Positions 11,663-50,000 of a DNA stretch of 51,895 nucleotides are shown here, one piece after another (positions within the stretch are counted from its first letter, which is position 1; every line of letters starts with the position of its first letter). Made by a program: the position numbers and the translations under genes. Source of the stretch: Atractiella rhizophila (taxonomy: Eukaryota); contig MU271249.1 in NCBI GenBank assembly GCA_021432655.1, positions 1-51,895 of the forward strand, in the 5' to 3' direction. Below the pieces are notes generated by a model. The model did not search any database and was not told where the DNA came from. It saw only the letters and a program-made list of their open reading frames with translations.

Positions 11663-13361
11663 CTAGACAGGAGTGACACCAAATTTCCGACAGACATCAG
11701 ACATATATTCCTGCCTATCGTCATCCACTTCTTCCTCCTTAAGTCCTAGGTAAACTTCGACAATAGCAGGATGTTCCCTGAACAACTCGAAGACTCCCGC
11801 TATGCTGAAATCAACAAACAATTTATCTTGATTCGAAACAGATTGCAAGCTTCCTGGAGTGGGGTAGTAGCTGGAGTGGGAGGTTTCTGATCAGGAATAA
11901 TGTAACCATCGCTGAATGCTCCTGCAGCCGCCCGTTGAATAACAGAACAGAGAAAGCAGCAATGACAAACCTTGACGGAGCAAGGTATTGAAATCCGCGA
12001 AGGACTCACCAATACTCGCTAATCCCATTGCTCCTGTCATTCTGATTCTCTTAGGAGGTCCGGCAGAGAGGGTGTTGGGATCAGCAGGCCATTTCTTGTT
12101 GCTGTTCATGGCAGGAGTAGCAACATCGGTTTGTTCCTTGATGACCGGTTAGTTCAGCAAAGACACGAGTAAGGCTAAGAAAAGACGCACCTTTTCTTCG
12201 TCTGAAGCAGCAGCCCACTCATCTGCCAGCTGTCTGTCCCTCTCCTTCACCGTCATAGGATGACCCTCCATCAACTCTGAGTCTTCCGCTCCAGGATCAA
12301 TCGCTGCCGCCCCTGTCGCCGCTGAGTCCTGGCACATTTCGAGCATCTTTGTGTTAGGGCAAACACTATGTGCGGTCGCCGATGGGCGATGCTCTGTAGT
12401 GGCGGTAAACCTAAGAGAATAGTATGGCATGAGAAGACTAACCTGTAGTGGAGGTAAACCTAAGAGAATACTCTGAGGTCACCACCACTACATCTTGATG
12501 TATATATACATATGTAAAGGCACTGCCATAAACTGTAACGTACGTTTCTTGAAACACGCAAGATAGCTAGATCAGGAAAGTAATAAAGGGAATACTCGGA
12601 AATAAGATATACTGGGTAGTACTAGTGCGAAAGGACAATAAGGCGAAAATGGAGACGGTGCAGACCGGCGAAATGTAGAAGGTTTGCGGAGCGGCGATTC
12701 GCGTGAGAAAGGGGAAAGTGGCGAACAGCGCAGACATGAGCAAAGGGGCGATGGGTAGGCACGTGCTCTCATGACGTGGTAAAGTGGGTCACATAACTTC
12801 GGATGGTGCATTTCGGTAATGTGTAGGGGCAAGCCTGACACTTTGGCCAGAGCGGCCAAGGATCACAAAACTTCTTGTTCTTCGGATTCTTCTATTCGGT
12901 TACAATTGTTAGAACTAGTGGAAAAAGTGAAAGCAAAGCACACACCTCAATGTACTCCTCCCAAACACTATCAGGGGCAACTGGATGATAGCAATCAGAA
13001 TTCCAGCCCCAGCCTGACTTGTGTTTCAATTGATTGTAGATTTTGAACTTCACAACAAGCTACAAACACCTTAACCCGTTGAACTGCAGCCCGAAGGGAG
13101 ACGTACCCCACGAAACTTGCTTTGGCATGAGCTGGCATCCTTGATGCCTCCATGACTGCTTCCCCGAAACTTGGTTGCACAATCATTGAATGCTTTCTCC
13201 TTGAATCCACCTTGAAGGCGATCTCCAGAGGTCCAGATGGTGTGAAGAGTGCCGACGAGAATCTGTTCATCCATAGCCGACCAGATGGCCTTTTCAGTCT
13301 TCCGTTCCTTCTTATTGGCTGGAGTTCCCGAATCGGCTGTACTAGAGCTCTGTTTGGCCAT
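11663..13361 (-). pseudogene. Harbinger Myb/SANT-like DNA-binding protein, interrupted by a solo LTR
   Basis: MAKQ..KAIWSAMDEQILVGTL..GGFKEKAFNDCA..GIKDASSCQSKF, typical of the Myb/SANT-like partner; convergent with the transposase inside the TIRs. Confidence 0.8.
12352..12840. mobile_element. Solo LTR (489 bp) with 5-bp TSD CTTTG
   Basis: TGTTAGGGC...GCCTGACA termini; CTTTG at 12347-12351 and 12841-12845; first about 170 bp homologous to the LTRs at 14476 and 19456. Confidence 0.92.
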
Positions 13362-13394
13362 TGATCTCGCGTGTCGCACGTCGTAGGGAGGGAG

Positions 13395-13434
13395 GAGTGC
13401 TGAGTGCTGAGTGCTGAGTGCTGAGTGCTGAGTG
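13395..13434 (+). repeat. Heptamer tandem repeat (GAGTGCT)x5.7
   Basis: Perfect repeats read directly; lies between the minus-strand TATA-like motif (about 13477-13482) and the ATG at 13361. Confidence 0.95.
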
Positions 13435-14475
13435 TGGTTTGCTGCACAAATTGGGAATGGATGTTGAGGAGGCTGCTTTATAGGGATTTGGAGGGAGACT
13501 GAAGAGAGACATGGTCTCTATGACAGGACAGCATCCTACTAGTGAGACTTCTGATGATTGTCAGAAAGGAGAGGGGAAGCTGTTTGGTTGGAGACAGTGC
13601 TGATCATCGGGCAGTCTGAAACATGTCCGGTTGTTCTCACGCCAACGAAATCACAAATTTGGGATCGAAATACAGCTCCAAGGCTCGATTTCGACTTTTC
13701 GAATCCTGGCTAGGATGAATTGCAATTCGCAGATTTGTGAATTGCAATTTTCGGCAGCCAAACGGTACCGTGAATTGCCTGATTAGGGTCCAATTCACGT
13801 CCAATTCATCCCAGCCAAAATTTCAAACTTGGAAGTCGCTAAACAGGCTCTTAGAATCAGTTTTCCTTCTGACAATCATCATAGGATAAACCTGTTCGAT
13901 GCTCTGGTAGTGAGAGTTTACCTAGCTAGTGTGGGTGGTGGTGGACTCTTTCATTCAAGCATTGTAACCGCTATTCTTACCTGGATTTGTCATGCTCATC
14001 AACCACCTGCTGCTTCCCTGATATCTGGATTCCAGTAGCTCATGACGTGAAGTCCCTACCACCAGAAAAATTCGAGAAACATCCCACCTCCAGACAAGTG
14101 TTTGTTTGAATCGAGGAAGATAAAATTGTTTCAGGTCCTCATCTCCTAAGAATAGACTAAATGTCCAGAACACAATCTCAAATCCCAATTTCAGGTCCAT
14201 GACTAGCCTCAGGCCAGACTTCATGCTGCTTGATATTTGGGACAAAAGCTGCTTTGCAAAAAAATTATGTGTATACATATATGAAATCCTTAACAGAACC
14301 AAAGGGGAAAACAACAGTGACGGGGCAATCAGGTGTCGACTTTTACAAACGTTGATGGGAGTCCAGACAGGTGAACACGCCCTGGCCAGGGTGAGGTTCG
14401 GCGATTTACGAAAAGTACAGAAATGTACAACTCGATGTTCGAAAACAGATGAAGTTACTGCACCAAGGAGACATG

Positions 14476-14898
14476 TGTTAGGGCTGACACTATGTATGGT
14501 TGCCGATGGGCGATGCGTCTGTAGTGGAGATAAACCTAAGAGCATGATGTGACATGAGAAGACTAACGTCTAGTGGAGATGAACCTAAGAGAATACTCTA
14601 AGGTCACTTCCACTACTCTCTGATCTATATACAAGCGGAATAACACTGCCACAATGTATAGTAGAGAGCAGATGAAACATGTAAGAGAACTAAAAGGGGA
14701 AAGTGACAGTGGTATTACGAGGGGTTAATAAGAGGAGAATGGACACAATTAGGCTAAGTGGTGATGTATGCGCAAATGGGCAAACAGGCGACCGGGCGCC
14801 GATTTGCACTGCGTGCAAACGGGTGACTGGAGAAGCAGAGTCATGTAGAACGCAAACGGGCGAACTAGGGCCGATTTGCGTAAGATACAAACCTGACA
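14476..14898. mobile_element. LTR (left arm), same family as the solo LTR at 12352
   Basis: TGTTAGGG...ACCTGACA termini; shares the duplicated tagtgga[g]..aacctaagag motifs with the solo LTR; no TSD. Confidence 0.8.
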
Positions 14899-14939
14899 CC
14901 GCTTTGCTGCCGACCACTGCTTTGCAACCTCGTGAAGCC

Positions 14940-16999
14940 AATACCCTGATGATATGGAGGTGGACGCAACAAAGTTCAGACCCCCTCATTGTCAAAGATG
15001 TCAAAAAATCTGACACAAAGAGAAGGAATGCAAGATGTCCGTGAGCAAAGAGCATAGAATATTTTGACACTCGTCTTGTACAACAAGAACGACGATCTAC
15101 ACAAATTGCCGACCAGTCGCTGAAAACGAGCTTGACAGATCTGGATGAGGATTTTTGAGACGGCAATGTGTGAAAGGAGTGTCCCCATCACCGACTCACA
15201 ATTCATTTTCGTCAACTAAAATCACTTCCAACAAAGCGCCGCTTTGCGCAGATTTCCCTTCTCCTGAACATGACTCCCCATTTCCAAAGTTGCATTTTTC
15301 CCTTTTGGAGACAAAGATGTGCAGATGTTGCAAAAATATATGACAAAACCCGCTCATGTTCAACACCCATATCCCTTGTCAGCTCAAAAACGAAACTCAG
15401 AACTGTGTTTCATCATCCAAATTCCCATCATTGACATTGCCACATCGGCACTTGTTGACAGCAGGGCAACCACTTCCTTTATTTCCCAAAACATTTCTGC
15501 ATACAACCTACCCGTCACTCAACTCCCTTCCTCAGTGCCTGTTTACAATATCGACAGATCTCTCAATCGGGGAGGTTCCATCTATTCTGTCACTTATTTA
15601 CCCATTTCCACTGCGCTCATCACAAAGTTTGGCAATTTGTGGTGGCAGAGTTGGGAACGGTTGAGATGATTCTGGGTAATGATTGGTTAAGATACCACAA
15701 CCCAAAGATTAACTGGGTGTTAGGGAAAGTTGAGTTCTCTTGCTGTCCCACCAGTTGCAACATGGTTGATGTGTCTACTACACGCAAACAATTTCCATCG
15801 TTGTCTGCTTTAATACGAGCTGCCATGATGAAATCGCAGAAACTAGCGAAAGACGTGGCGGCGATGGGACCAAAAAATGTTGTCGAAATACCAGCGCAAA
15901 TCACTGACTTTCAGACATTTTTGACGACAAAAATTCAAAACTTCACTTCCTCTCCAGTGACCTTGGGACCATGCCATCAGCCTCAAACCAGAAGCTTGAC
16001 CACATACTGGTCCTGTCTACCCTTGAAGAGAGATGAACAAGCGGCGCTCGACCAATTCATCGATGTGGAACTAAGCGCCGGTCATATACGTCCCAGCACA
16101 GGAGCACATGGCACTTCCATTTTTTTTATGCACAAAAAGGACTCACCTGAACTTCATCCCTTTTTGACTATCACAAGTTGAATGAAGCCACAGCCAAAGA
16201 CAAAACATCACTCCCCATCTGAGCTGACCTCTTGTCCATGGTCTTTGCTGAGAAATTCCCCAGCAAGATTGACCTGAGGAAAGGTTTCAACAATTTGAAC
16301 ATCAAAGATTGAGCAAACACAAGCGATGCGTCACACAAATTGTGGACTTTTCTAACCGTTGGTAACGTATTTTGGACTCTGCAACTCACCAGCAACTTTG
16401 CAGGCATTCCTGAACTTCGCGGGTGATCACTGCTGTGTTCATCTTCATATACATTGACGATATCCCGATTGTGACAGAGACTGAAGAGGAACACTGGGAA
16501 CGTATTCAACAAGTTTGTCAAATTTCACGCGAAAATGGACTTTATGTAAATTTGCCGAAATGTGTTTGGTGTCAAGATGAGGTGGAATATCTAGGTTTGT
16601 CATTTCCAGCAGAGGGATCAAACCAGATCCAGTACAAGTCACAGAAGTGATGGATTGGCCAGAACCAAAAAACATGAAAGAGGTCCAAATGTGCTTCGGC
16701 TTCGCTCACTTCTACCACCACTTTTGCGACAGATTCAGTCACATCGGGCGACCTTTATATGAACTGACAAAAAATGAGGTTTCCTGGGTCTAGGGGTAGA
16801 TCAGCCACATTCGTTACTCACGATTTCAGCGTCCATTTTGGCACATCCTGAACCAACAGGATGATTTTGGCTCAAAATGGACATGTTGAAGTAGCACCGT
16901 TTTGTCGCAAATGAAGTCAGATGACAAGTTTCATCCTCTCAGTTTCGTGTCAAAATCACTCGATGCTGCCCGGAGGAACTATGACACCTATGAGAGGAT
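14940..16999 (+). pseudogene. Ty3/gypsy gag-pol remnant (gag C-terminus, protease, RT, start of RNase H)
   Basis: DMEVDATK; broken zinc knuckle CQRCQKI*HKEKEC; protease ALVDSRATTSFI..YNIDRSLN..MILGNDWLRYHNPKINW; RT HIRPS, KIDLRKGFNN, YIDDI; RNase H FHPLSFVSKSLDAARRNYDTYER; many stops and frameshifts. Confidence 0.93.
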
Positions 17000-18992
17000 G
17001 AAACTTGTCATCTGACTTCATTTGCGACAAAACGGTGCTACTTCAACATGTCCATTTTGAGCCAAAATCATCCTGTTGGTTCAGGATGTGCCAAAATGGA
17101 CGCTGAAATCGTGAGTAACGAATGTGGCTGATCTACCCCTAGACCCAGGAAACCTCATTTTTTGTCAGTTCATATAAAGGTCGCCCGATGTGACTGAATC
17201 TGTCGCAAAAGTGGTGGTAGAAGTGAGCGAAGCCGAAGCACATTTGGACCTCTTTCATGTTTTTTGGTTCTGGCCAATCCATCACTTCTGTGACTTGTAC
17301 TGGATCTGGTTTGATCCCTCTGCTGGAAATGACAAACCTAGATATTCCACCTCATCTTGACACCAAACACATTTCGGCAAATTTACATAAAGTCCATTTT
17401 CGCGTGAAATTTGACAAACTTGTTGAATACGTTCCCAGTGTTCCTCTTCAGTCTCTGTCACAATCGGGATATCGTCAATGTATATGAAGATGAACACAGC
17501 AGTGATCACCCGCGAAGTTCAGGAATGCCTGCAAAGTTGCTGGTGAGTTGCAGAGTCCAAAATACGTTACCAACGGTTAGAAAAGTCCACAATTTGTGTG
17601 ACGCATCGCTTGTGTTTGCTCAATCTTTGATGTTCAAATTGTTGAAACCTTTCCTCAGGTCAATCTTGCTGGGGAATTTCTCAGCAAAGACCATGGACAA
17701 GAGGTCAGCTCAGATGGGGAGTGATGTTTTGTCTTTGGCTGTGGCTTCATTCAACTTGTGATAGTCAAAAAGGGATGAAGTTCAGGTGAGTCCTTTTTGT
17801 GCATAAAAAAAATGGAAGTGCCATGTGCTCCTGTGCTGGGACGTATACGACCGGCGCTTAGTTCCACATCGATGAATTGGTCGAGCGCCGCTTGTTCATC
17901 TCTCTTCAAGGGTAGACAGGACCAGTATGTGGTCAAGCTTCTGGTTTGAGGCTGATGGCATGGTCCCAAGGTCACTGGAGAGGAAGTGAAGTTTTGAATT
18001 TTTGTCGTCAAAAATGTCTGAAAGTCAGTGATTTGCGCTGGTATTTCGACAACATTTTTTGGTCCCATCGCCGCCACGTCTTTCGCTAGTTTCTGCGATT
18101 TCATCATGGCAGCTCGTATTAAAGCAGACAACGATGGAAATTGTTTGCGTGTAGTAGACACATCAACCATGTTGCAACTGGTGGGACAGCAAGAGAACTC
18201 AACTTTCCCTAACACCCAGTTAATCTTTGGGTTGTGGTATCTTAACCAATCATTACCCAGAATCATCTCAACCGTTCCCAACTCTGCCACCACAAATTGC
18301 CAAACTTTGTGATGAGCGCAGTGGAAATGGGTAAATAAGTGACAGAATAGATGGAACCTCCCCGATTGAGAGATCTGTCGATATTGTAAACAGGCACTGA
18401 GGAAGGGAGTTGAGTGACGGGTAGGTTGTATGCAGAAATGTTTTGGGAAATAAAGGAAGTGGTTGCCCTGCTGTCAACAAGTGCCGATGTGGCAATGTCA
18501 ATGATGGGAATTTGGATGATGAAACACAGTTCTGAGTTTCGTTTTTGAGCTGACAAGGGATATGGGTGTTGAACATGAGCGGGTTTTGTCATATATTTTT
18601 GCAACATCTGCACATCTTTGTCTCCAAAAGGGAAAAATGCAACTTTGGAAATGGGGAGTCATGTTCAGGAGAAGGGAAATCTGCGCAAAGCGGCGCTTTG
18701 TTGGAAGTGATTTTAGTTGACGAAAATGAATTGTGAGTCGGTGATGGGGACACTCCTTTCACACATTGCCGTCTCAAAAATCCTCATCCAGATCTGTCAA
18801 GCTCGTTTTCAGCGACTGGTCGGCAATTTGTGTAGATCGTCGTTCTTGTTGTACAAGACGAGTGTCAAAATATTCTATGCTCTTTGCTCACGGACATCTT
18901 GCATTCCTTCTCTTTGTGTCAGATTTTTTGACATCTTTGACAATGAGGGGGTCTGAACTTTGTTGCGTCCACCTCCATATCATCAGGGTATT
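16991..18992 (-). pseudogene. Mirror copy of the Ty3/gypsy gag-pol remnant
   Basis: Reverse complement of 14940-16941 carrying the same disabling mutations. Confidence 0.93.
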
Positions 18993-19033
18993 GGCTTCAC
19001 GAGGTTGCAAAGCAGTGGTCGGCAGCAAAGCGG

Positions 19034-19456
19034 TGTCAGGTTTGTATCTTACGCAAATCGGCCCTAGTTCGCCCGTTTGCGTTCTACATGACTCTGCTTC
19101 TCCAGTCACCCGTTTGCACGCAGTGCAAATCGGCGCCCGGTCGCCTGTTTGCCCATTTGCGCATACATCACCACTTAGCCTAATTGTGTCCATTCTCCTC
19201 TTATTAACCCCTCGTAATACCACTGTCACTTTCCCCTTTTAGTTCTCTTACATGTTTCATCTGCTCTCTACTATACATTGTGGCAGTGTTATTCCGCTTG
19301 TATATAGATCAGAGAGTAGTGGAAGTGACCTTAGAGTATTCTCTTAGGTTCATCTCCACTAGACGTTAGTCTTCTCATGTCATATCATGCTCTTAGGTTT
19401 ATCTCCACTACAGACGCATCGCCCATCGGCAACGGTACATAGTGTGCATCCTAACA
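19034..19456. mobile_element. LTR (right arm)
   Basis: TGTCAGG...CCTAACA; mirror of 14476-14898 with mismatches clustered at the outer end. Confidence 0.8.
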
Positions 19457-20135
19457 TCGACTTGCACAGAAGGTGAATGTTCAACAGGAGATACAAAGAG
19501 GTGACGGGAGTAGAAATAGGAGAACGGGTGCCAATTTACGTAGAATGCAGATGGGCGATAGGAGACGCAAACAGGCAAACAGGACTGATTTGCAGGAGAG
19601 CTAAACCGATACTGCTATAGTGAAGATGATTCTCGGAGCAAAATGTATCAGTTGAGCATCAATCTGTTGAGATCTATGAGAAAGACAATGAGAATGAGGA
19701 AGTCGAGGAACCAACCATGATGATGAGAACACAATCTCTGTCGTACACAATCTGATTGAGGCATGCCCTTTACCTTTCTTTGTATTTGTAGTTGGCTTAA
19801 GGTTAGGTTGTGAGGATATGTATCCTACACCTATTGTCATCAACGGTCAAGTTGCTCCGCTGATACCTATATTACCTGTTCATCCATGATGGCATTATGC
19901 TGCTTCCCATGAACCAATTTTTATAGAGAGATATTTTGTTCAAAACTGAAATTGATTGCAGCATTCCCAAGAAACGCAAAGCAAGCATATTAACCACATG
20001 ATGGTATTTGTCTATGTGCAATCATTGACTGGCTCATCTCTGCATTTCTTGAGCTGAGAGGGAACAAGGGAACAAGGGAACAAGGTTTCAAGCAGAGGTG
20101 AAAACCCTCACGTTTAAGTATACCCCAACGTGAAG

Positions 20136-23100
20136 ATGTCAGCTTTACCACATGATATCGACCAACAATACAGAACAAAAGCGGACAGTGGCTTTGTACT
20201 ATGCCCTTGCGAGCAATGCAGCCATCCAAAGGACAAGAATAGGTTCTTACAACAACGCTCAAGGAAGAGAGATGACCACCTTAAACTGCAGGAAGAATTA
20301 CGTCGCTTCAACCTATCACAGCAGCTGCCTAACTAGGACAAATCTTGCTCAGATATCGATTCCAAAGAGAAGACTGGACAACCAAGAAAAGAAGCAAGAA
20401 AAATGAACAGGAAAGCAAGCCGCCTAACCAGAGCTGAAGCCTCCAATAATCGTGAGGACAAGGTCATGGAGCAACCACGAATCTCAGCAACATTCTCTAA
20501 ATCCAGAGCAGAGGACTTTGCAAGAAGTGCGTTTTTTACAATCTCATACTTACTAACCAAATTGCCTTAGGCTTTAGAAGGCATACAAATGTGGCGGAAG
20601 CACAGTCTCTTTTTATGCTCTATCGAATCCTTTTAGCCTATTTCAGCTACCTCTGTGGAATGAGCCGGACTCATATTACCGTCGCTGCAAAAATAGTCCG
20701 GACTTTGCTTATACTTGCGATTTACCTTGGTATCTCAATCGCTTTAACCATGATTCAATCGACCTCAATATCAGGATCTTCACATTTGCCACTTGAACTT
20801 GACTTTGATCAGCTTTCCTCCATGATCACAACATTTCTTTCTACATTGCCTGTCAATATTCGGACAATCAACTCTCATCTCAACATTGAGCCCAAAATCG
20901 AGCGCACAGTTTGCTGTGGCAAATGCCATCAACGATACCAACTGGGCATGAACACTCCACGAAACTGTATTCGAAGGGAGACAGCTCATAGCAAACCCTG
21001 CAGCGAGTCATTGTTCCGACAACGTCGAGGAAGGAACAAGGGTCCAATACTAGTGCCTAGATACTATTACAGCACACAATCTTTTGAATCATGGTTAACA
21101 TACTTTCTCGCACGAGCTGGGATTGAGCGTCTGTTGAAGAAGTGCCACCCTCCTCGAAAAAATGATAAGATAATCCGAGAGATTTGGGACAGTCCGGCTT
21201 GGAGGACTTTTACAGATTCAAGTGGCATCCCTTATACCGAAAATCCTGATAACTTAGTTTTTGGATTATTTGTGGATTGGTTCAATCCATATCAAAACAA
21301 AATCGCTGGCAAAAAGGCGTCCTCAGGAGTTATTTTACTCGTGTGTATGAATCTGCCCGCAGAAGAAAGATACAAGTTGGAAAATGTTTTCATTCTTGGA
21401 ATTACACCAGGAAGCGAACCGACTGTAACCACGATTAACAACGTTTTGGAGCCGCTGGTCGTGGAGCTTCTCGCTTTGAAAGATGGGAAAACATTTGTAA
21501 CCTCAGACTTCCCAGCTGGAAAGACTTTCCGTGCAAGACTTTGGGTTCTCATCTGCGATCTTCCTGCTATGAGAAAGGTTGCTGGTTTTGCTTCTCATAG
21601 TGCCAACTTATTCTGCTCCTTTTGCTATTTGAAGAAAAAGGACATCGAGATTTGGGATTCATCTAAGTGGAAGCTTCGAACTGCTGAGGAACACCTCATT
21701 GCTGCAAGACATTGGAAAGCCGCTACCACATTTGCTTAACGTGATCAAATCTTCAAAGAATCAGGTGCACGGTATTCATGCCTTCTGGAACTATATGATT
21801 ATTGGGATCCAGTCACCGGAAGCATTATCGGCATCATGCACAACATCTGTGAAGGCTTGTTGTCAAACTATTTTCGCCGAAAGTGGGGTCTTGGAGAGAT
21901 CCAGGTAGTGTCTAAAACGGAAGCTGTCTCGACAAATGATCCACCCCAATCCACTGCTGAGAGCGAAGAAGAAGGACTCTCCGGTGTGCAAGATGAGGAT
22001 GACCTTTACTTCGAGTTTTTGAACGATAGTGAAGACATTCTTGAAGATCTTACTGGTCTTGCAGACGAAGCCGTGGAATATAATCAAAATGGTTTGGCCG
22101 CAACCCAGCTTAGGATGAAATTTTATCGTTTGGCGGGTCTCCAAGTCCCTGAAACTGGTGCAGAAATACTCGACCAGCCGGAAAACTCAGACAACGACGA
22201 TGGGGCAAAGTACCACGACCACGATTGGGTTGAAGGTGCAAGTGACCATGAAAGTGTACCGGATCAAGAAGAGGGAGACGAGGAGCGAGAGTTCAAATCC
22301 AATACCAAGGCTAAAGACAAGTTTCAAGGTATTTTCAGAGGTGAAGAAATGCAATCTGTCAGAGAATGGATCGCTGCGCTTGAGATTCCAACTTGGATCG
22401 AACGGCCTCCAACGAACCTTGGAAGTGCTTCCCATGGCAAATTGAAAGCCGACACTTGGTTTGTTTTATTCACAGTTTGTCTGCCTCTCATTTTGCCGAT
22501 AATCTGGACTGGACGAACTGATCGCACGGAACATTGGAGAAATTTTGCATTTTTAGTTACATTTACCAACATTGCTTGTGCTTATTCTTTGACTGACGAC
22601 CTCATCGATCTTGGAGAGGATGCTTACCGCAAGTTTCGAGAAGGCTGCTTCAAACTCTTTCCTCACTCTCCTTCCGCTCCAAATCATCATTTAGCTGGGC
22701 ACATTCCTCTACTCCAAAGGTTCTGGGGCCCGCTCATGCCACTTTCTGAATGGTCTGGAGAACGAATCATCGGAACTCTCCAGCAGTTTCGGACAAACAA
22801 CAAATTCGGTACGTTGCCATCACCACAAGCTCTGTGCTCACAATGACGGGGGAATAGATGAACTTAATCTCACTATGTTTCGTGAATTTTGCCGTCGTGG
22901 TCGATTCGAGGCTTTCTTAAACGATCCACAGCTGCCAATCAAGCACTCCGCTCTGAAGCACATTCTTCCGAGCACCATCTGCTCTCGAACGTCGTCAATG
23001 TCACTCAATGACGGCACTTTCGTACTGTCAGATGATCAACTTATCAGCTTTCAAAAGCAATCGAAACTTCTCAAAGACTCTGATTACAACTCAATTCTTG

Positions 23101-23621
23101 CGCTCGTTAACAGCGAGTTGCGGCCGCGGAAGAAGCAAAAGCATCATACGATGCTTTCTGAGCGCTTATCTCAGAAAGATATCTGCAACATTTTTGTGCC
23201 ATTTGGCCGATATCTCCAACAGATCTCGTACAAAGGGCGAATGATCAGTTGAAGAGGAAAACACAAAGGCAACAGTGGAGTAATATTCCGAAAAGGGGAT
23301 GCAGAAGAATGGGGAGAAGTTATTGATATCATTCAACACGTGAGGGAGGATGGACAAATTGGTTGGGTATGTGAGGTTTTCCTTCAAGTTTCCATTTATT
23401 CCAACTTCGGCGCACGACATTTATCATTTGACCCATTTCTTAACTTTCCTGGTCTCAAAGCAAAGGCTTTTTACTTTGGTACCAATAGCCGAAAGGAGAT
23501 GATCAAACTCAACCAGGTCAAATCACATCATGCACACATTGCACCACCTTTTGGCACGCTTGGTATCAAAGATGACCGCATAGTTTTAGCAATTGATTTG
23601 GATAGGGGTCATTCTGAATAA
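20136..23621 (+). pseudogene. CACTA/EnSpm transposase (tnp2 / Transposase_21-like), inactivated
   Basis: IWDSPAW, FVDWFNPYQNKIAGK..CMNLPAEERYKLENVFILGITPG, CDLPAMRKVAGFASHSANLFCSFC, YWDPV..MHN, GKLKADTW, PNHHLAGHIP..WGP..EWSGERIIG; in-frame TAA at 21737-21739 and further stops near 23250-23283. Confidence 0.92.
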
Positions 23622-25167: not shown

Positions 25168-26510
25168 ATGGACTGCCTTCTCGAACTTCCTCCAAGCTTC
25201 ATCCCCGACCTGGTGACTCGAGATCACCAATCCCACTCTCATGTTGCTCTTACGCTCCCAGAGAGCAGTCTGCCCTCCCCAACCGCTCAACCCTCTTCCA
25301 TCAAAATGTCTCAACATTATCGATCACTTCGGCCGCAACTGCCTCTCGATGCGCAAAACCCTCTCGATGCCTTGATCTCCGGTGACTCGAGACACAACAA
25401 ACCGAGGCTAAAGTGGCCAACAAGTTACCATTTCGATTCCCCACAGAACAGCCCTCAATCTGGATCTGGATCCGTCGTCGATCCCAGGAAACGACGACAA
25501 TCTTCATCTTCGTCCCCCGAAGTGAGGGATGGCAAGTTCAAAAAGATGCTAGAGTGGGAATTGACGGTGCCGATTGCTCCACAGAACCTTTGCGACAGCA
25601 CTGCTCGACACTTCGAGCTCAAAGGCAATCCAGACCTCGAGGAGGTCAAGAAAAGGGTGTTAGAGTGGGTTTCCCAGTGCGTTCTCTCGTTTTGGCTGTC
25701 TTTGTCACTCTTTGATGGAAATCTCAAAGAGGATCATTGCACGATCCCACGACGACTGCCGCGCAAATACCTCTTCTTCAACATCAACGTCAATCACAGT
25801 CGCCGCAACAGCCTTGCGGTCACTTGGACTTCGGTGGCTCGAGATCACTTCCCCAACGCCATTCCCACTCTCATGTTGCTCTTACGTTCCCAGAGAGCAG
25901 TCTCCCCTCCCCAGATGCTCAACCCTCTTCCATCCAAACGCCTCCTCCTCAACATCAACCTCAACCTCAACCTTTGCAAACGGAGGGTCACGACGACCGC
26001 TCTCAAGTTATCCTCATACGCTCTCTCAGTGTACCTACCATGCTTTAAAGTGACATATCCCCAGCGAAAGGATCCTGAACGACAATCTGCCGTAGGCAAC
26101 GTGGGTGGAATGCCAGATTTCTCGTGGCTCTTCGGCCTAGCATGTGCCATGCGTCTGGCACCTAGCTTCGATCCGGGTCAGAGGATTTGGGCGGCGGTTG
26201 TGTTCATACTCGGCATAGTCGGTGTTGCCTCCGCCAACATCGTCTCCCGTTATCATGCTAGTAAGTGACTTCTTGTACTCAAGGCTTAAGCTGAAACTCT
26301 TCTTTTGTCCTAGCTGGGGATCGACAGACACTTTCAGAAATTGCAGGCGATCTCGTGACATGGCTTGTCTTTTGGGCAGGCACGACCATCATTTTTATAC
26401 GACTTTTTCTGGAGTTTATTGGGATGTGGGGTCTCACCTTCTGGCTCAGTATGATGGTTATTTGGACGGCGATGTTTTCTATTATCATTCATGGCCAACG
26501 AAGGGAATGA
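25168..26510 (+). CDS. Hypothetical spliced protein: low-complexity N-terminus, several hydrophobic C-terminal segments
   Basis: TATAAAAG at about 25088, ATG at 25168; hydrophobic stretches FSWLFGLACAM, IWAAVVFILGIVGVASA, LVTWLVFWAGTTIIFI, LTFWLSMMVIWTAMFSIII; internal duplication. Confidence 0.45.
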
Positions 26511-30072: not shown

Positions 30073-30853
30073 TATACCATATCAATATCGAGCTCTTAGA
30101 CAATTTGAGGCGAATCGACCCATTCTCTTTGCATGTCGCAGAATCGCTTCAGCCTCTCGCCAATTGCCTGTTGACCAAAGCACAAGAAAGAATCAACCAA
30201 GTTGATGGGGCGAAGAAGCAAGATGCCTTACTGGGGTTCAGAGATGAATATGTGAACGTTCAACAAGTCATTTTTGACAGTCTACTACACCTTACAGAAA
30301 TGAACGAAAGGCAAGCATTGAAAAACTCGAACATCCTCCATTTGAAGAAGTTTGATACAATGCAATTGCTCCAGAAAATGCTATCGAGAAAGAAATTGTC
30401 CATTCCAGTGATGAGTCGCTTGCGGTTCTACCTTGGGCGTGAGCTTCATTTTTGAGGATATACTAATACAGCCTTAACTGAGCTGCGTGACTCTATGAAG
30501 AACAGTATAACCATTATAAACGGAGCAAAATGTGCCTAATCCATTGGGTTGATCGATTTCTGATGCGGGAGGAACGAGGAAGCGTTGGAGCGATTCAAGG
30601 AGGCGGAGGAGCTGCACATCTCGACGGGAAGTGCACAGGGGAGAGCAAACTGCATCCAATCCATGGGGGACATCCATTTTCGATGTGGGAGAACAAGCAG
30701 TTCTATCTCATGACGGGGGATCGATGTGGTAGGGCCTACTGCCTTGATCTTCTCAATGCAATCAAGGCAGGCTGCCAGTGGACTGCATGGATGAAGAGGT
30801 AAGGAATTATTCAGGACGCTATCGTGAGTCGCGCCTGATATTCCTCGTAACAT

Positions 30854-32380
30854 GTGCTTGGGCAAGCATTGACTTCGCTGGATGTTGATACAGATTCTAC
30901 ATCAACATGGGCTGTAGCGATCCGCGACTACAATCACCCAGACTATGCAGACACCAACGCTCCTCTCACCTTCAAGATCCCGAAAGCCCAGAGATTCCTT
31001 GACAAACTCCTCCCCAACCCTCTCGATCACAAGGACCCCACCAAAGTGGTCCAACTGCTTAGGGACTTTTTAAACGACACTCGGAGACTCAAGAGAAATG
31101 AGAAGTCGATGTCTTTCAAGAAGCAAGAGTTCGACTTCCTGGACAGTGCGGTGGATCACCTAAGCTCTCTGTTGAGCTCCCCGGATAGGATTGGCATCGA
31201 AGTCCAGAAGAGTGTATCCACTCTAAAGGGCCAAGTCGCTGATCTGAAGGAGGCGGTCACTGCACTCACGGCTGCAGTTAACCCCTCCACGCTGGGAGCG
31301 AAGACTGCGGAGAGCATGGCATCGCACCTGTCGAAGCTTCACGGAAAGCCTGACGCTAAGCACCTTTCCTCCATCATCCCCCACTCCGTTTCCCATCAAC
31401 CCCAACCCCAAAAATCCCAAAACGCTTCTAACGAAGATGTACAGCTCACCCTCACTTGGAAGACACCGGAATTGCTGGATATCTCCTCCCCCCTTGACGA
31501 ATTGCTTGAGGAGGGAACCATCCCAAAGTGCAACCTCATAAAAGAGGAGCCTCGAAAGATTGTCGCCACCTTCAACGACATCTTCAGGACAAAGAACATC
31601 CCTAGTGAAGTCTATGAAAAGACACCTAGGGAGGAGAGGATAGCAGCGAAGATGAAGCCTCATCTAAGAATCCGTGCCGCTCAGAGGCTCAAGAGCGGCG
31701 ACCTTCGACTGCACTTTTATTATGCCAGTGAAGTACAACTTGCGATCGAATCCCAAGAGGTGTGGTTACCACACCTCGAAAGTGGATGGTCCATCAAATG
31801 TAAGACTTACCCAACCATTGTTCATGCAGTCCCCTCCTCCTTCGGCATCGACAACCCGGAAGAGGTTCGTAGTCGTATCGAACCCTTCAATCTCAACTTG
31901 TGCGACCACATCCTCAAGATGAACTGGTGCCGAACGAAGAAACAAGCAGCCTCCTCAGAGGAGAAGGCCAAGACACACTCCTCCCTCATCCTAGTAGTCG
32001 ACCACTCCTTGACTGCCGACGCCTTGATCGAATTTGGTCTCGTCATCGACGGGAAAGCGTATACGGTGGAAAAGTCAATCTGTGATGTGCTAAGATGTTT
32101 TAAGTGTCAACAGCCTGGCCACACCATCGCGAGGTGCAAGGCCACTGTCTCCTGTGGAGTATGCGCCGGTTCCCATTTTACGAAATCTTGTACACTCTCC
32201 TGCACGAATCCCAATCCATGCCGTGACGTGCAAAACTGCTCCCATAGACCTATAAAATGCTCTTTATGTAACTCCACAGAACACAACGCTCTCTGCAAAG
32301 GTATGGAGGGCGAGGTGATTAACAACGCAAGACTTTCGCACAGAATCCAGGTGGGCTCCTCCCGGTTCTATGCAAAATGA
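30854..32380 (+). CDS. LINE ORF1 gag-like protein
   Basis: Open 508-aa frame; RAAQRLKSGDLRL, IVHAVPSSF, HSSLIL; knuckles CFKCQQPGHTIARC, CGVCAGSHFTKSC, CSLCNSTEH. True start uncertain. Confidence 0.9.
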   Translation: MLGQALTSLDVDTDSTSTWAVAIRDYNHPDYADTNAPLTFKIPKAQRFLDKLLPNPLDHKDPTKVVQLLRDFLNDTRRLKRNEKSMSFKKQEFDFLDSAVDHLSSLLSSPDRIGIEVQKSVSTLKGQVADLKEAVTALTAAVNPSTLGAKTAESMASHLSKLHGKPDAKHLSSIIPHSVSHQPQPQKSQNASNEDVQLTLTWKTPELLDISSPLDELLEEGTIPKCNLIKEEPRKIVATFNDIFRTKNIPSEVYEKTPREERIAAKMKPHLRIRAAQRLKSGDLRLHFYYASEVQLAIESQEVWLPHLESGWSIKCKTYPTIVHAVPSSFGIDNPEEVRSRIEPFNLNLCDHILKMNWCRTKKQAASSEEKAKTHSSLILVVDHSLTADALIEFGLVIDGKAYTVEKSICDVLRCFKCQQPGHTIARCKATVSCGVCAGSHFTKSCTLSCTNPNPCRDVQNCSHRPIKCSLCNSTEHNALCKGMEGEVINNARLSHRIQVGSSRFYAK

Positions 32381-35300
32381 GCGGAGACACCTCACCCATA
32401 CTGGAGCAACCGTTTAACCAGCTAAGTCCTTTCTTGAATAATTCTCCTTCTCCCCATTTTGTAACGGGTGTCCCCAATCCCTCTCACCCCTCTCCAACTC
32501 CACCAATCACCAACGACCTCCTCTATCTCCCTCCCCGCTCACCTCCCTCCCCTCTTCCTTCCGCAACCCTTTCCTTGTTTCCTCTCCTCAGCAGTCACCT
32601 AGCGCTGATTTCTCTTATCATGGGGACAGCCTTTCAAGCGAACGGGAGTCCTCTTCTTTCAGATCTCTTTATCCTTCTCGTCTTCACGTGTGTCAATACA
32701 ACACGCAAAAGTCGTCCCCAACGTTCCATTCTCTTTTATCTTCCGCTCATTCACGTTTCGATATTCTCCTTATTCAAGAACCTTACATTATACCCGGTGA
32801 TTTGCTTCCTTTTACCACGGCTGAAACCATTTTTCTCAGTCCCCTAACTCCAGATCCACCATCCTCATCAACTCCCCCTCCATTCCCGCCAGCTTTGTCT
32901 TCCAAATCGTCTCTCCTACCCCTGAAATCTCCACAGTTCAGATTACTCTCCCATCTTATACATTTGTCTTTCTTAACGTGTACAACGCTGCAGATTTGAT
33001 GTCTGTAACCTTCTCCGTTTTATTTTCCCTTATTATTAAAATTCGTTCTGAGTTCAGCTCTGAGAGTAATTTCCTTCTTTACGTTGGGGACGACTTCAAC
33101 CTCCACCAGGATCTTTGGAACCAAGAAGGCTATCTTCAAAGGGACGCAAAAGCTGACGAGCTACTGGCGAGATTGACGGAAGAAGGGATGGAGCTAAGGT
33201 TGGAGCCAGGGGTGGTCACCTGGGTGTCGAGGGAATCTCAAACAGTCATTGACCTCATGTTTTTGAATGCAGAGGCTGATGACCTAGTAGAGAAGTGTGT
33301 TACCTCCCATGACCCCAAGTTGAACCACGGCTCTGACCACTTCCCCATCCTCACCACCTTCAACCACCAAAAACAATAACCAGCCGACCTAGGAAGATTC
33401 AACCTGAAAAAGGCTAATTGGGAAGTTATCAGGGAAAGTGTGGAGGATACCTTGAAGGAATACCCCTTCGAGAGGGAATCAAAGCTGGAGGAGGGGGAAA
33501 TCAACGCTGCAGTTGAGTTTCTCACTTCCTCAATCCAAAAAGCGCTGGAGGCATCGACGTCCAAAGCAAAGGTGTTTAAGTTTTCGAAGAGGTGGTGGGA
33601 CGAGGAGCTCTCCCAGCTAAGCACTATGGCAGGGAAGCGAAGAAATAGGTTCCAGAAGACAAAGGATGCAAGGGACTATGCAGTGTGGCAAAGTGCCTTA
33701 CAATCCTTTCGTCGTACGGTCAAAACGCGCAAGCGTGAGCACTGGAATAACTTTCTAGCCGACCTAGATGAAAAGTCCCTATGGACCGCCTCATCGTATG
33801 CTAAGCACGAAAGCAGGGAGCGACAAATCCCACCCCTTAAGAATTCCGACAACTCCTTCACCTACGACAACGAAAGTAAATCGAGGGTTTTCCATGATGC
33901 CATCAGCGCCGCGCACCCCAACCCTTCCCTCGAAGACTTAAACGATGAGAACCAGGAGCTTTCGCCGGATTGGATCCCGTTCGATGACGTGCAGATTCAG
34001 GAGCTGGACAGATACATTGAGAACGCGAAAGCGAAGTCTGCTCCAGGCGATGATGGAATCTCGAACGGCGTTCTCAAGGAGATATGGCCACAAATCAGGG
34101 AAGTCCTCTTTCACATCATCTCATCATGCTACCACCACAAATACTATCCTAACAAGTGGAAATGCTTCACTACGGCGATATTAAGAAAGCCTAAGAAGCC
34201 CGACTACTCCCTCCCCAAAGCCTACCGCCCAATCGCCCTCCTCAAGTGTTTAGCTAAAGTGTTTGATGGAGTTCTAGCAGCGAAGCTATCTTACTACGCC
34301 GAAAACCACGACCTGTTACCCCAGCAACACTTCGGAGGAAGACCAGGTCGTACCACCACCGATGCTCTTGTGACAGTGGTGGAGTTCATCATGGAGGCTT
34401 AGCGAAAAGGTGAGGTGGTGGCGGCAGCCTTCTTAGACATCAAAGGAGCGTTTCCATCTGTCATCCATGAACGCCTGGTTTCTAACCTCCGCAAAGCAAA
34501 GGTCGATCCGCACTTCTGCGAAGTGATATTATCATGGCTCGCCGGTCGTTCCACTTCTTATTCATTTGACGGCTTCTCCTCCCACCAACTTCCTATTCCG
34601 ATCGGGCTGGTCCAAGGCTCCCCTCTTTCTCCTATCCTCTTCCTCTTCTACATCTCTCCCCTCCTCCGACTTGCATCGCGAGACAACTCACTCTCAGTAG
34701 GTTTCATCGACGACTCCTCTATGCTAGTCAAGTCTGCTTCGGCAGTATTGGCTATCAGAGATCTGGAGGACATCCTGGTGGACGCAGAGGAGTGGGGAGA
34801 GAAACATGGGGCTTTGTTCGAAAGAGACAAAACTAAGTTTGTTCTCTTCACTCGCAATCGCAAGAGGATAACTACCAGTCTTAGATTGCGGTTCGGCGGC
34901 GAGGTGATTAGGTCGTCGGATAGCGCGACGCTCCTTGGTGTCATTCTTGACAAGGAGCTCCGCTGGAAGCAGCAGCTCTCTTCGATCGAGGAGAAGGGCC
35001 GCAAGCGCCTTATGGCAATCGCTTCACTATCCAAGACGACGGAAGGCATACCTCTTGCCCAATTCCGTCGTCTATACACCTCAACCGTCTGCGCCGCCAC
35101 TGACTATGCCGCCATCATTTGGCACCAACCTCACATCCACTCTGCGATAGTACAAAGGCTGGAGACCCTCCACCACCTGGCTCAGCGTATAATGCTGGGT
35201 GCGCTCAAGTCCTCACCCATCCCCGCCCTCGGCTATGACTCTAACCTACCAGATCCCATTGTCCGCTTGGACAGAGCCATCTTTCGCAGCGCATTGCGCC

Positions 35301-36517
35301 TTCTTACTTTACCCAATTCTAACCCTGCAGGAGCGCTGGCCCGTGACTGCAGGGACAGCTTTCCTAGATCTTTTCCTTCCACTCTTCACAAAATTTTTCA
35401 CCGCTCTTCTATCTCCTTCCCCCCCGACCTCGAAGTCCTTCTCCCGCTCCCACTTCCCCCTTCCTTCTTACCCAACTTCTCCACGCTCATCCCTGACTCT
35501 AAAGAAGCTGCGCTAGATGCGTACAAAGTGGTAGCTAACAACAGGACGGACCTTCACATCTTTACAGATAGCTCACTCACGGAGGATGGGCTGGCAGCGG
35601 CGGCACTGGAGGTGGAATCAGGATGGGATTCGGTGATCAGGATAGGGGATCCGCATCGCAACTCTGTCTTTGAAGGGGAACTCACGGGGATCCGCATCGC
35701 CCTTGGTCGGATAGCTCAGTTTGATGAGGACATCCCGCCGAATGTGATCATCTTCTCGGACAGCCAGAGCGCAATCAAGGCGCTAGAAGGTCACACCAAG
35801 AATCGCCCGGGACAGCACATCCAACTGGACATCCACTCTCGCTTCCGCACTATTTCCAATCTCCTCCCAGAAGTGCGCTTCCGTCTCCAGTGGATCCCTG
35901 GTCACTTGGAAATCGAGGGAAACGAGCTCGTCGACAAGCTAGCCAAAGGAGCTACAAAGAGGAACGACATCCCTCCGCCATATCCCTTTCCGTTCAGCCC
36001 CTCCAATCTCTCCACCGCCATCCGTGCCTATTCCCCTCCCAGCCCAGAACACCCTCCCGTCTCAGGCAAACACCACCTTAAAGCTAGAGGCGAACTCTCC
36101 TCGAGCAAGACATACAAGATGCTAGCAAGCCTCCCTCGTCCAGTCGCTTCGGTAGTCGTCCAGCTCAGGTCGGGACACGTGGGACTCGGGGACTACCTGC
36201 ACCGCAGAACGGTGCAGGAGTCCCCTCTTTGTGAGCACTGTCGCTCTCGTGAAACAGTAAAGCACTATCTGCAATTCTGTAGGAAATACAAACGCCACCG
36301 GGAAGTCCTCAAGGCAACGCTGGCTAAAGGAGGTATCAGAATCACAAGTAATGCCTCGCTGCTCGCCAACCCCGACGCTCTCCCTCCGCTATGGAAGTTC
36401 ATCAGGGCTACGGGCAGGTTCTCATGGCATGCTCGCTCTACGGAACGGATCCTTCGTTACAAGAAGGCCAACCACGACGCCAAACGTTCGGAACAGGCTG
36501 GGGAGGGTATAGGCTAA
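32377..36517 (+). pseudogene. LINE ORF2: APE endonuclease, reverse transcriptase, RNase H, CCHC; disrupted
   Basis: CQYNTQKS..DILLIQEPY, GDDFNLH, TVIDL, GSDHFPI; KSAPGDDG, YRPIALL, FLDIKGAF, QGSPLSP, FIDD; IFTDSS, FEGEL, FSDSQSA, WIPGH..GNELVD; CEHCRSRETVKHYLQFC. Stops at 33377-33379 and 34400-34402, frameshifts in the EN region. Confidence 0.95.
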
Positions 36518-47067: not shown

Positions 47068-50000
47068 ATGGCACCATCGACGACTGCTTTACCACTCGAA
47101 CGAACGGACGCTGCGATTGCGGACGAACAAACTAATGTTACCGGTGATTTCGAGATGCCTCCGCCAGTGTTCGGACCTGTTACTGCTGATGCTTTGGATT
47201 CTGCAGTCGAACAGGCGAGAAGTGGAAGATTAGTATTAGAGTTGAGTTTGGATGAACAGGTGCTTCAGTATGTGTCTGCGACCTGGTTTGAGATAACTGG
47301 GTACATGTTTTTTTTCTTTCGTTTTTGCTTTTTGGTATTGATTAGATTTACAGGTTGGATCCTGACGTGTGCATTGGACGTCCGATCTTTGATTTCCTTT
47401 ACGAAGGCGATAAACACGTCTTCCAGCAAGCCACACGAGCGCTCGAAAAGGACGATTCTCGCACCGTCGAAGCTCACTTTCGCATTATCTTCAAAGCTGA
47501 GACAGAGAACGATGATTTGGAGACAGCGGACGCTACTTTGTTTGCGATGTTGGAAGGGATGGGTATGCTTATGCATGATCGTATTTCAGGTAATAATTCG
47601 CATACCATGTGGGTTGTACGAGAGTGTGGCCAGAAGAAGCTTTTACCGACTGGAGGATGTACTCGAACACCTTCGCGCCGTCCATTAAGCTTCGTCGCAC
47701 CCTCCTTCGACCTCACTCACTTCCCTCCTGGTACTGTTTTATGTCGAATCTGCGAACGTCAAATACCAGCATATTTCTTCGAAAGGCATAACGAGACGTG
47801 CAGCCAGAATAGTCAGACTATTATCTACGGGGAACGTATTCGACAGGAATGGGAAGCAATGGTCAAGAACTACACCTCTGAAATCTCTCAGCCCCCAACA
47901 AGGCCTCCATCAACTCCATTATTCGCTTCCGGTACTGTTACTGCTCATCCCGCTTCCCCATTTTACAATCAACAAAAGTACACTTCTCCAGCATTAAACG
48001 AACCGAGTCGTGTCAGTGGACCCTCTCCTATTTCTCTCCCACTACCCCACGTGCCTTCACCAGCCACCTCTCCTGTTCAGCCAGTGTTTTCCATGGTAGG
48101 TACCCCCCTAACTGTACCACTTTCGCTCCGCATACCCCACATTCCTGCAACAAGATCGAAAGCATCATCGATCAAGGATTTCGAAGTGATCAAACCGATT
48201 TCGAAAGGAGCGTTTGGAAGCGTGTATCTTGCTAGGAAGAAAATTACAGGCGATTACTATGCGATCAAGGTGCTGAAGAAGTCAGACATGATCGCAAAGA
48301 ATCAAGTCACCAACGTCAAGGCAGAGCGGATGATCTTAATGAACCAGGCTGAATCCGACTTCGTGGCAAGGTTGTTTTACACTTTCCAAAGCAAGGATTA
48401 TTTGTACCTAGTGATGGAGTACGTGAACGGTGGAGATTGTGCTGCGTTTTTGAAGATGCTCGGTAGCTTCTCGGAGGAGTGGTCTCAGATTTATGTTGCT
48501 GAGATTACTTTGGGGTTGGGGTATCTTCATAATTCGGGTATCGTCCATAGGTTTCTTCCGTCTACATCTTGTTTGAGTTTTACTAATCCATTGCATAGGG
48601 ACCTGAAGCCAGATAACCTTCTCGTTGACTCCAAAGGACATCTCAAACTTACTGACTTTGGCCTCAGTCGAATCGGTTTACTGGGACGACAACCATGGAT
48701 TCACAGTGGTCTGTATCCTACGCGTGGGAAAGGGCGATATCACCACCCCAAGCAATCAAGATCAACCTCTATAAACCCCTCGAATCTTTCCACACCAAGC
48801 TCTGAGCCTGTTACAGCTGCAGGATCTATGGAATCGTACTTTAGCAATTTCCTAGCGATAGATGATTGCGCTGCCGCCACTGAACCAGAAAGCTCTGGGG
48901 CTGGAGGGCGGTCCGGCAGGAGGTCTGGGGGTAGATCAAAGACGACGAGCATTCCTCGAGTGTCGGACTGTCCGATTATTTCTTTCGTTGCAGGAATAAA
49001 CACAGCTTTTCGATCTCATCCGAACAATCCATCGCGGTCCAATACGTCGTCCAAACATGTCGTTGGAAGTCCAGATTATCTCCCTCCAGAGAGTATTTTA
49101 GGTATTTGTATAGACGAGGGTGTAGATTGGGTACCTTTCTGCTTTGCTCGGTGGCAAGACGTTTGCTGATTGAGGGTGATTCAGTGGGCGTTGGGGGTGA
49201 TCCTTTACGAGTTCGTTCACCATCTGTGGTCCAAGAGTTTAATTTACTGATATATTCTTCAGGTTCCTTTACGGCATACCTCCTTTCCATGCTGCAACTC
49301 CTGCGAAAGTCTTTGAAAAGATTTTGGCAGGTCGAATCGATTGGCATGAGGATGAGCTGGAGATTTCTAGCGAAGCGAAGGATCTAATGGAGCGACTTAT
49401 GTGTTCGGACACGAAACGACGGTTTGGGAAGAATGGCCCGGAGGAGGTTAAGGACCACCCATTCTTCAACGGTATTGATTGGGAAAATCTGCTCTCTCAA
49501 GAAGCACCATTCATTCCGAACGTCATGGATCCTGAGTCGACGGATTACTTTGACGCGAGAGGGGCTGTTGGAAAGCATTCTGATGATGAGGATGTTGGAG
49601 TTGTGAATCATATCGATACTGGTGAGCATATGCCGGTGGGAGACACTTCAATGAACCCGTCAGTCGCCAGATCAAAGAAACGTATGTCCAGAAGTATGCG
49701 AGCAGAGGCAGATCCAGGTTCAGCAACCGACTTTGGGACGTTTGATTACAAGAATTTCGTGGTCTTGAAACGGGCAAACGAGGATGTGATCACGAAGCTG
49801 CGTGCAGATCAGATGGTTGGATTGAGCGCAGCACTCAGTCAATCTCAACCCAATATTCCTCACCAACGACATTCTCAGCTCATCGGGAAGCAACCAACAT
49901 CCGGAAACGGTCCTCCATCCCCTTCAACCTCGACCTCCTCGATATCGTCCAATCCTGCGAAACCAGCCACACCTTCCTCAGTTCTGGCTGGCTCTTTTTC

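Follow-up and report, generated by a model that had tools for sequence, protein, structure and literature searches.

A near-perfect palindrome of a dead Ty3/gypsy element in Atractiella rhizophila: a probable fold-back inverted duplication with hairpin-RNA geometry

Long inverted repeats separated by a short loop yield, when transcribed, the canonical substrate of Dicer. The maize locus Mu killer reportedly derives from the DNA transposon MuDR and is said to be transcribed, as has been proposed, by read-through from a flanking gene; small interfering RNAs (siRNAs) and heritable silencing of the active element are said to have been demonstrated for it. Inverted duplications made by DNA repair are described in Saccharomyces cerevisiae, where whole-genome sequencing of more than 500 rearrangements gives fold-back stems of 4-15 bp and, in strains wild-type for MRE11 and SAE2, a median loop length of 36 nt (PMC7467729). 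Oppositely oriented homology distal to the break is the commonest second junction in that account, others being Ty elements (PMC7467729). Here we analyse a 51,895-nt stretch of Atractiella rhizophila DNA (assembly GCA_021432655.1, contig MU271249.1, positions 1 to 51,895 of the forward strand; hereafter the window), which lies in a region rich in transposable elements (TEs) of an Atractiella-like basidiomycete (Pucciniomycotina). At 14476-19456 it carries a palindrome whose arms are the 5′ part of a decayed Ty3/gypsy long terminal repeat (LTR) retrotransposon. The palindrome is probably a genuine fold-back inverted duplication, the scar of break repair or of replication template switching; its centre is built like that of the yeast events, and its shape recalls Mu killer.

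A repeat search of 13000-21000 returned one inverted pair, 14476-16941 and 16991-19456, with arms of 2466 nt each and 49 nt between them. The two 2,466-bp inverted arms and the 49-bp spacer described in an earlier, sequence-only reading of the window are borne out by this search and by base-by-base comparison, and so is its view of the palindrome as near-perfect. The palindrome is near-perfect rather than perfect: the arms align without gaps and differ at 8 of 2466 positions (99.68% identity), which in left-arm coordinates are 14483-14486, 14497, 14498, 14549 and 16084. What the comparison adds is that the differences are concentrated at the outer LTR ends. Identity is 67/74 (90.5%) in the outermost 74 nt and 2391/2392 (99.96%) over the remaining arm, and the placement of seven of the eight mismatches in the outermost 74 nt is far from random (binomial P=1.7e-10 for at least 7 of 8; Fisher P=1.3e-10). 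A scan of all 51,895 nt found no comparable repeat elsewhere in the window, the next longest inverted pair being 127 nt long and 73% identical. The palindrome is internal, with 14,475 nt to the left window end and 32,439 nt to the right, and the window is without N.

The element carried by the arms was read by three-frame translation and by tblastn with nine distant polyproteins from a representative protein library, whose Pfam content is RVT_1, RT_RNaseH, rve and Chromo. It belongs to Ty3/gypsy (Metaviridae): the LTR ends are TG...CA, and a zinc knuckle, protease, reverse transcriptase and the start of RNase H follow in that order. Translation, Pfam and tblastn thus uphold the arm content proposed earlier (LTR, gag knuckle, protease, reverse transcriptase and RNase H start). 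In the window the first part of RNase H ends ...HPLSFVSKSLDAARRNYDTYER, and integrase and the 3′ LTR have been lost from the arms through truncation. The coding capacity is not intact: between 15274 and 16999 the reading frame changes at least five times and is interrupted by at least five stops. As one arm copies the other without gaps, all of these stops and frameshifts are common to both, and the earlier claim that the duplication is later than the decay of the element stands. For variation within the family we used two public short-read runs of one sample from one study, X1 and X2 (0.76 and 0.69 of sampled words), whose Logan contigs were compared with 13900-17100. One defect present in both arms, a T missing after 16152, is retained as a T in another family contig. 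The family differences in X1 comprise 87 transitions and 36 transversions, among which we found no directional bias resembling repeat-induced point mutation (C>T+G>A = 42 vs A>G+T>C = 45).

Two observations concern the 5′ part of the element. The gap between the LTR and the knuckle is only ~280 nt (14707-14990), so that the capsid part of gag is missing. The leader in this gap carries the motif GCAAAC...GATTTGC twice, and its contig depth of ~100x single copy is above that of the pol region. The leader depth and the missing capsid may point to a non-autonomous sub-family.

At the centre of the palindrome the native sequence of the element turns back on itself. The native reading runs through TAT GAG AGG (16989-16997) and is followed by the reverse complement of the left arm. 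In tblastn, eight of the nine aligned gypsy polyproteins are colinear through 16942-16990 in one frame, ending at 17012-17030; the relatives read ...HP(L/V)(S/A)F.SKSL..A.RNY....(K/R)ELLAI at the place where the window has HPLSFVSKSLDAARRNYDTYER, followed by the turn-back. The spacer is not self-symmetric and has an internal 6-bp stem, GTGTCA/TGACAC. The minimum-energy fold of 16935-16997 as single-stranded DNA consists of exactly the 7-nt stem made by the flanking inverted microhomology and this inner 6-bp stem, at -7.8 kcal/mol. A missing-adapter artefact was rejected because the spacer reads as RNase H in the frame of the element, a judgement made with no search for adapter sequences. A second kind of assembly artefact has to be weighed here, namely that two near-identical dead copies at different loci were joined tail-to-tail by a fold-back read or an amplification chimera. 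The 7-nt stem does not discriminate between this and a genuine event, since in-vitro snap-back synthesis also uses microhomology. However, no contig end coincides with the turn-back, and the spacer, being element sequence in frame, is neither adapter nor a zero-length join.

The turn-back region also differs from most of its family. The window has A at both 16941 and 16958, where nearly all family contigs have G. At 16941 the A is carried by 95.6 of 6615 depth in X1 and 483.3 of 16985.1 in X2, G being the family majority; at 16958 it is present only in X2, at 202.2 of 5166.6 depth. With G at 16941 the fold-back stem becomes 6 bp plus a G-T pair. The two A residues may predate the event, or may be a result of hairpin repair. 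A search of metagenome contigs with the exact 40-nt junction pattern gave 0 matches, and a 5.8-billion protein set gave no candidate for the 41-aa open reading frame (ORF) across the junction, both collections being unlikely to contain them.

The outer ends of the palindrome are LTR ends. Since gag-to-pol reads inward in both arms, both LTRs point inward; the promoter orientation that the sequence-only reading had left open is thereby settled, with both 5′ LTRs outermost and the gag-to-pol sense inward. Contig depth falls from ~9.5e4 to ~8.5e3 across 14649-14862, a drop of about tenfold past the LTR end, and in the left LTR the run at 14626-14631 is presumably TATA-like. Homology between the arms ends exactly at the LTR terminus (TGTTAGG) on both sides. 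A third LTR copy, at 12352, varies at the same sites at which the outer 74 nt of the arms are mismatched. Neither flank is related to the other or to the arms by blastn (word size 7) or Smith-Waterman alignment, which gave weak short matches only, with scores of 16-34; the best of these pairs 19565-19617 with the leader at 14850-14903 (54 nt, ~74%). A target-site duplication (TSD) is absent, the adjoining 5 nt being ACATG at the left terminus and TCGAC at the right.

These ends bear on two further origins. The first is a snap-back cDNA of a defective element, made by a helper and inserted either by integrase through two U3 (unique 3′) ends or by LTR recombination; both outer ends are indeed exact LTR termini, and self-priming at short inverted repeats is a known property of reverse transcriptase. 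An event recent enough to leave one internal mismatch should, however, have kept its TSD, and one self-copied cDNA would give identical U3 ends, whereas these differ at 7/74. The junction of left flank and LTR, moreover, is also found in a 10%-diverged contig and looks old and resident. We consider a cDNA origin very improbable, and its integrase-mediated form was rejected on the absence of a TSD together with the unequal LTR ends. The earlier claim of an origin other than retrotransposition thus holds in the sense that the palindrome is not an integrase insertion. The second is that two independent insertions of the same family came to lie tail to tail and were later homogenised by gene conversion. 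Summed contig depth, far above single copy (~1000x over the LTR, ~100x over 14756-14969 and ~5-60x in interior bins), suggests an abundant family, and the flanks differ, as two insertions would have it. Independent insertions would not, however, be expected to produce a mirror-exact truncation, a microhomology turn-back or the loss of the 3′ half in both copies, and we regard this origin as extremely unlikely.

The LTR and the left flank have features of their own. The LTR family is extremely abundant, with a summed contig depth of ~9.3e4-2.2e5 vs ~1e2 for single-copy sequence, far above the element interior; such values suggest roughly a thousand LTRs, most of them solo, or else a shared terminal module. 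In both X1 and X2 a 213-nt contig, ~10% diverged and at single-copy depth, spans the boundary of left flank and LTR (14278-14490). The left flank and the start of the LTR are thus present at least twice, and the left junction is part of an older repeat. The diverged contig may come from an older segmental copy or from the other haplotype, or may represent an upstream element with the same LTR, seen at its 3′ end. The left flank ends in the purine-rich AAGGAGACA, which we take to be similar to a polypurine tract.

The anatomy of the arms, the spacer, the microhomology, the clustering of mismatches and the flanks can be read directly from the window. We favour a hairpin-primed fold-back with a homology-mediated second junction because the loop is native, the stem is short, the distal part of the element is lost, the switch in identity falls in a dispersed repeat and there is no TSD. 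In the proposed sequence of events, a Ty3/gypsy copy that was dead by then would have suffered a break or a stalled fork within RNase H. Its resected 3′ end, ...TATGAGAGG, could then have snapped back onto CCTCTCA, which lies 49 nt upstream, and have served as primer for DNA synthesis with its own strand as template. About 2.4 kb would have been copied in reverse, from the reverse transcriptase through the protease and the gag remnant into the LTR, most of which would have been included, with synthesis reaching to within 74 nt of its terminus. At that point the new strand may have been captured by a different, oppositely oriented LTR copy, through single-strand annealing or template switching. 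With such a capture the duplication would have come to abut what is now the right flank, and the remainder of the element would have been lost. What we infer is the order of these events, together with the break, the enzymes involved and the donor LTR.

Short-read depth bears on whether the palindrome exists as assembled. With depth as a proxy, exact arm contigs have ~2x the depth of single-copy contigs in both X1 and X2. Half coverage over the arms was named earlier as a mark of an artefact; the arm contigs, at ~2x flank or single-copy depth, speak against it, and one genomic copy folded back by a single read is a poor fit to these values. Fold-back chimeric reads are nonetheless real, making up 0.55-0.6% of Oxford Nanopore (ONT) genomic reads in one report (PMC12870357), and whole-genome amplification yields many artificial palindromes according to the Pacasus preprint (10.1101/173872). 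The former finds virtually no fold-backs in PacBio HiFi data (PMC12870357), which bears only on a HiFi-based assembly. Artefact reads join a sequence to its own reverse complement, as is seen here, and are mirrored about the read midpoint with the same flank on both sides. The present locus is unlike them in that its flanks differ, its outer LTR ends differ and its exact arm contigs are at ~2x flank depth.

A misjoin of two separate dead copies fits some of these data equally well, and several points weigh against a genuine duplication. Two near-identical copies misjoined by a fold-back chimeric read are likewise expected to give ~2x depth, different flanks and differing LTR ends; contig depth is not copy number, and the runs may share their sample with the assembly. 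None of the 16 contig pieces listed (1663 more are unlisted) crosses 16990/16991 or bridges the spacer, as a misjoin would have it, although this absence among the listed pieces is no evidence against the junction itself. In X1 the spacer's A at 16958 is found in no contig, the family's G accounting for 4479.1 of 4479.1 depth. The left arm's A at 16084 occurs only in a diverged contig (depth 89.1 in X1 and 132.5 in X2) and its G at 14549 in no X1 or X2 contig, so that some of the differences between the arms may be consensus errors. Finally, the native sequence past the turn-back is reconstructed from relatives that are 25-31% identical and not from this element's own family. On the other side, the misjoin needs two dead copies that agree at 2391/2392 internal positions and yet differ by 9.5% over the first 74 nt of the LTR, a contrast that would itself call for a particular cause. 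Long reads, in addition, usually span a 2.4-kb repeat, which leaves an assembler little cause to build its path on a single chimeric read. Taken together, we judge an assembly artefact unlikely, though far from negligible, and a genuine fold-back duplication the probable origin of the palindrome.

A separate matter is what the fold-back duplication would mean at the level of RNA. Because both LTRs face inward, a transcript from either would be self-complementary; modelled on a 4613-nt transcript spanning 14660-19272, it would form up to ~2.3 kb of near-perfect double-stranded RNA (dsRNA). By analogy, such dsRNA would be a substrate for Dicer in a fungus competent for RNA interference (RNAi). 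RNAi core genes are reported for all 12 Pucciniomycotina genomes examined in one study, in the available part of which Atractiella is not mentioned as a member of the set (PMC12210899). If the locus is real, siRNA production from it is possible but rather doubtful, and a measurable role in trans-silencing is less likely than that. The full proposal, in which fold-back repair in an early-diverging member of the Pucciniomycotina made a self-promoted hairpin locus whose dsRNA feeds Dicer and silences gypsy pol relatives and the high-copy LTR family in trans, strikes us as improbable, and the 'killer locus' of the earlier reading is a geometric possibility, not a finding.

Two considerations speak against this RNA consequence in particular. 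The hairpin transcript is a prediction from geometry, and we see no sign of a live family member, so that any live target family is hypothetical. Among the best 150 of 830 matches to the 240-aa ORF of the arm in 1.84 billion representative proteins, none is more than 44% identical, and in a second search with this ORF, of the 'longer' type, 0 of 403 candidates passed; gene sets often omit TE ORFs, which limits what protein searches of this kind can say of live relatives. Read-through from a neighbouring gene in the manner of Mu killer is not evident either, because the adjoining ORFs read outward, those of Transposase_21 (from 20501) being on the + strand and those at 12995-13517 on the - strand.

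The surroundings of the palindrome contain other mobile elements. Directly to its right, and reading away from it, are Transposase_21 (tnp2-type) ORFs at 20118-23252 (+; E 4.2e-13), which represent a DNA-transposon neighbour. A LINE-like non-LTR retrotransposon (long interspersed nuclear element) at 30851-36517 (+) has long open frames, an ORF1 with a weak CCHC knuckle, and matches to Exo_endo_phos_2 (E 8e-14), RVT_1 (E 3.7e-16) and RNase_H (E 3.5e-9), and may be young or close to intact. Among the sequences examined, one evident host gene stands out, a protein kinase ORF at 47346-49169 (+; Pkinase E 6.7e-37); its best match is 94% identical and is an Atractiella rhizophila 'kinase-like protein', more distant matches being named RIM15. 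A direct repeat, 25227-25339 and 25859-25971, has units of 113 nt that are 81% identical and spaced 632 nt, and lies in a GC-richer segment (0.52). Scans of the window with Rfam and for tRNAs each gave 0 matches. Pfam searches of 12 further flank and window ORFs assigned no family to the ORFs adjoining the palindrome, and a Myb/SANT-like identity suggested by eye for one of these adjoining ORFs is unsupported by Pfam.

Table 1. Features of the palindrome, and depth of short-read contigs over the arms, the left flank and diverged one-copy sequence, in window coordinates
Feature	Position	Strand	Basis or remark	Contig depth
Left arm: 5′ part of decayed Ty3/gypsy element (LTR, leader, gag knuckle, protease, reverse transcriptase, RNase H start)	14476..16941	+	repeat search, translation, tblastn	
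Right arm: gapless inverted copy of left arm, 2458/2466 identical	16991..19456	-	base-by-base comparison	
Left 5′ LTR, ~231 nt, TGTTAGG...GTGACA, sense rightward (inward)	14476..14706	+	solo-LTR alignment ends ~14705; contig-depth drop	
Right 5′ LTR, mirror of left, sense leftward (inward)	19226..19456	-	base-by-base comparison	
Outer 74 nt of left LTR, 7/8 arm mismatches; putative zone of homology-mediated outer junction	14476..14549	+		
Outer 74 nt of right LTR; putative remnant of a different, pre-existing LTR in opposite orientation	19383..19456	-		
Solo or diverged LTR, same family, ~85% identical to arm LTR	12352..12582	+	alignment; third copy showing variable LTR sites	
gag CCHC zinc-knuckle remnant CQRCQKI*HKEKEC, in-frame stop	14990..15031	+	translation	
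Aspartic protease remnant (VDSRAT..., ILGNDWL), frameshifted	15442..15760 (about)	+	translation, tblastn	
Reverse transcriptase remnant, YIDDI at ~16450	15950..16650 (about)	+	Pfam RVT_1 on 16414-16650, E 1.9e-11	
RNase H start (RT_RNaseH type in relatives), cut off after NYDTYER	16780..16999	+	tblastn, Pfam of relatives	
CCTCTCA, proximal half of 7-nt inverted microhomology	16935..16941	+		
Spacer/loop, native RNase H coding sequence that carries on the frame of the left arm (...HPLSFVSKSLDAARRNYDTY)	16942..16990	+	translation, tblastn	
TGAGAGG, distal half of microhomology; still reads native RNase H Y-E-R	16991..16997	+		
X1 left flank, exact contig	14260-14431			105.5
X1 arm, exact contig	14737-15054			235.7
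X1 arm, exact contig	16649-16928			179
X2 arm, exact contig	14737-14982			309.3
X2 arm, exact contig	15262-15481			344.2
X2 diverged one-copy contigs	various positions			132-162

If the palindrome is real, it offers a natural fold-back inversion with both junctions readable at the nucleotide level. It would mean that wild fungal genomes, too, are shaped by a mechanism worked out in yeast mutants, with dispersed LTRs as the resolving homology, and would provide a test case for the tolerance of a eukaryote for a palindrome with 2.4-kb arms and a short spacer. It would further allow one to test whether accidental TE palindromes seed RNAi silencing in basidiomycetes, whose natural triggers are poorly known; were the silencing proposal true, the locus would be to a fungus what Mu killer is to maize, but built from a retroelement and made by DNA repair instead of transposition. 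Should the palindrome prove an artefact, it would serve as a useful caution for long-read assemblies rich in TEs.

Of the known systems, the locus is most readily set beside the fold-back inversions of S. cerevisiae, which are also inverted duplications around a short asymmetric loop of native sequence (PMC7467729; PMC10622511). The stem is 7 bp here vs 4-15 bp in yeast and the loop 49 nt vs a median of 36 nt; as in yeast, sequence distal to the break is lost, and the outer end would have been resolved through a dispersed repeat, here putatively an LTR. The yeast events were selected in the laboratory, extend from tens of kb to a chromosome arm, and were validated by read depth and junction reads, whereas the present case is a natural 2.4-kb duplication inside one retroelement that is known from an assembly. 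In its RNA potential the locus resembles hairpin RNA (hpRNA) and endogenous siRNA loci of animals and plants, as well as fungal RNAi transgenes, in having a long inverted repeat and a short loop; hpRNA loci are, however, defined by their small RNAs, and this palindrome is known from DNA alone. Like Mu killer, it is a partial inverted duplication of a transposon with a terminal repeat and could give rise to a kilobase hairpin RNA directed at its own family (PMC3440606). Unlike Mu killer, it is built from a dead LTR retrotransposon, and its only candidate promoters are its own inward-facing LTRs.

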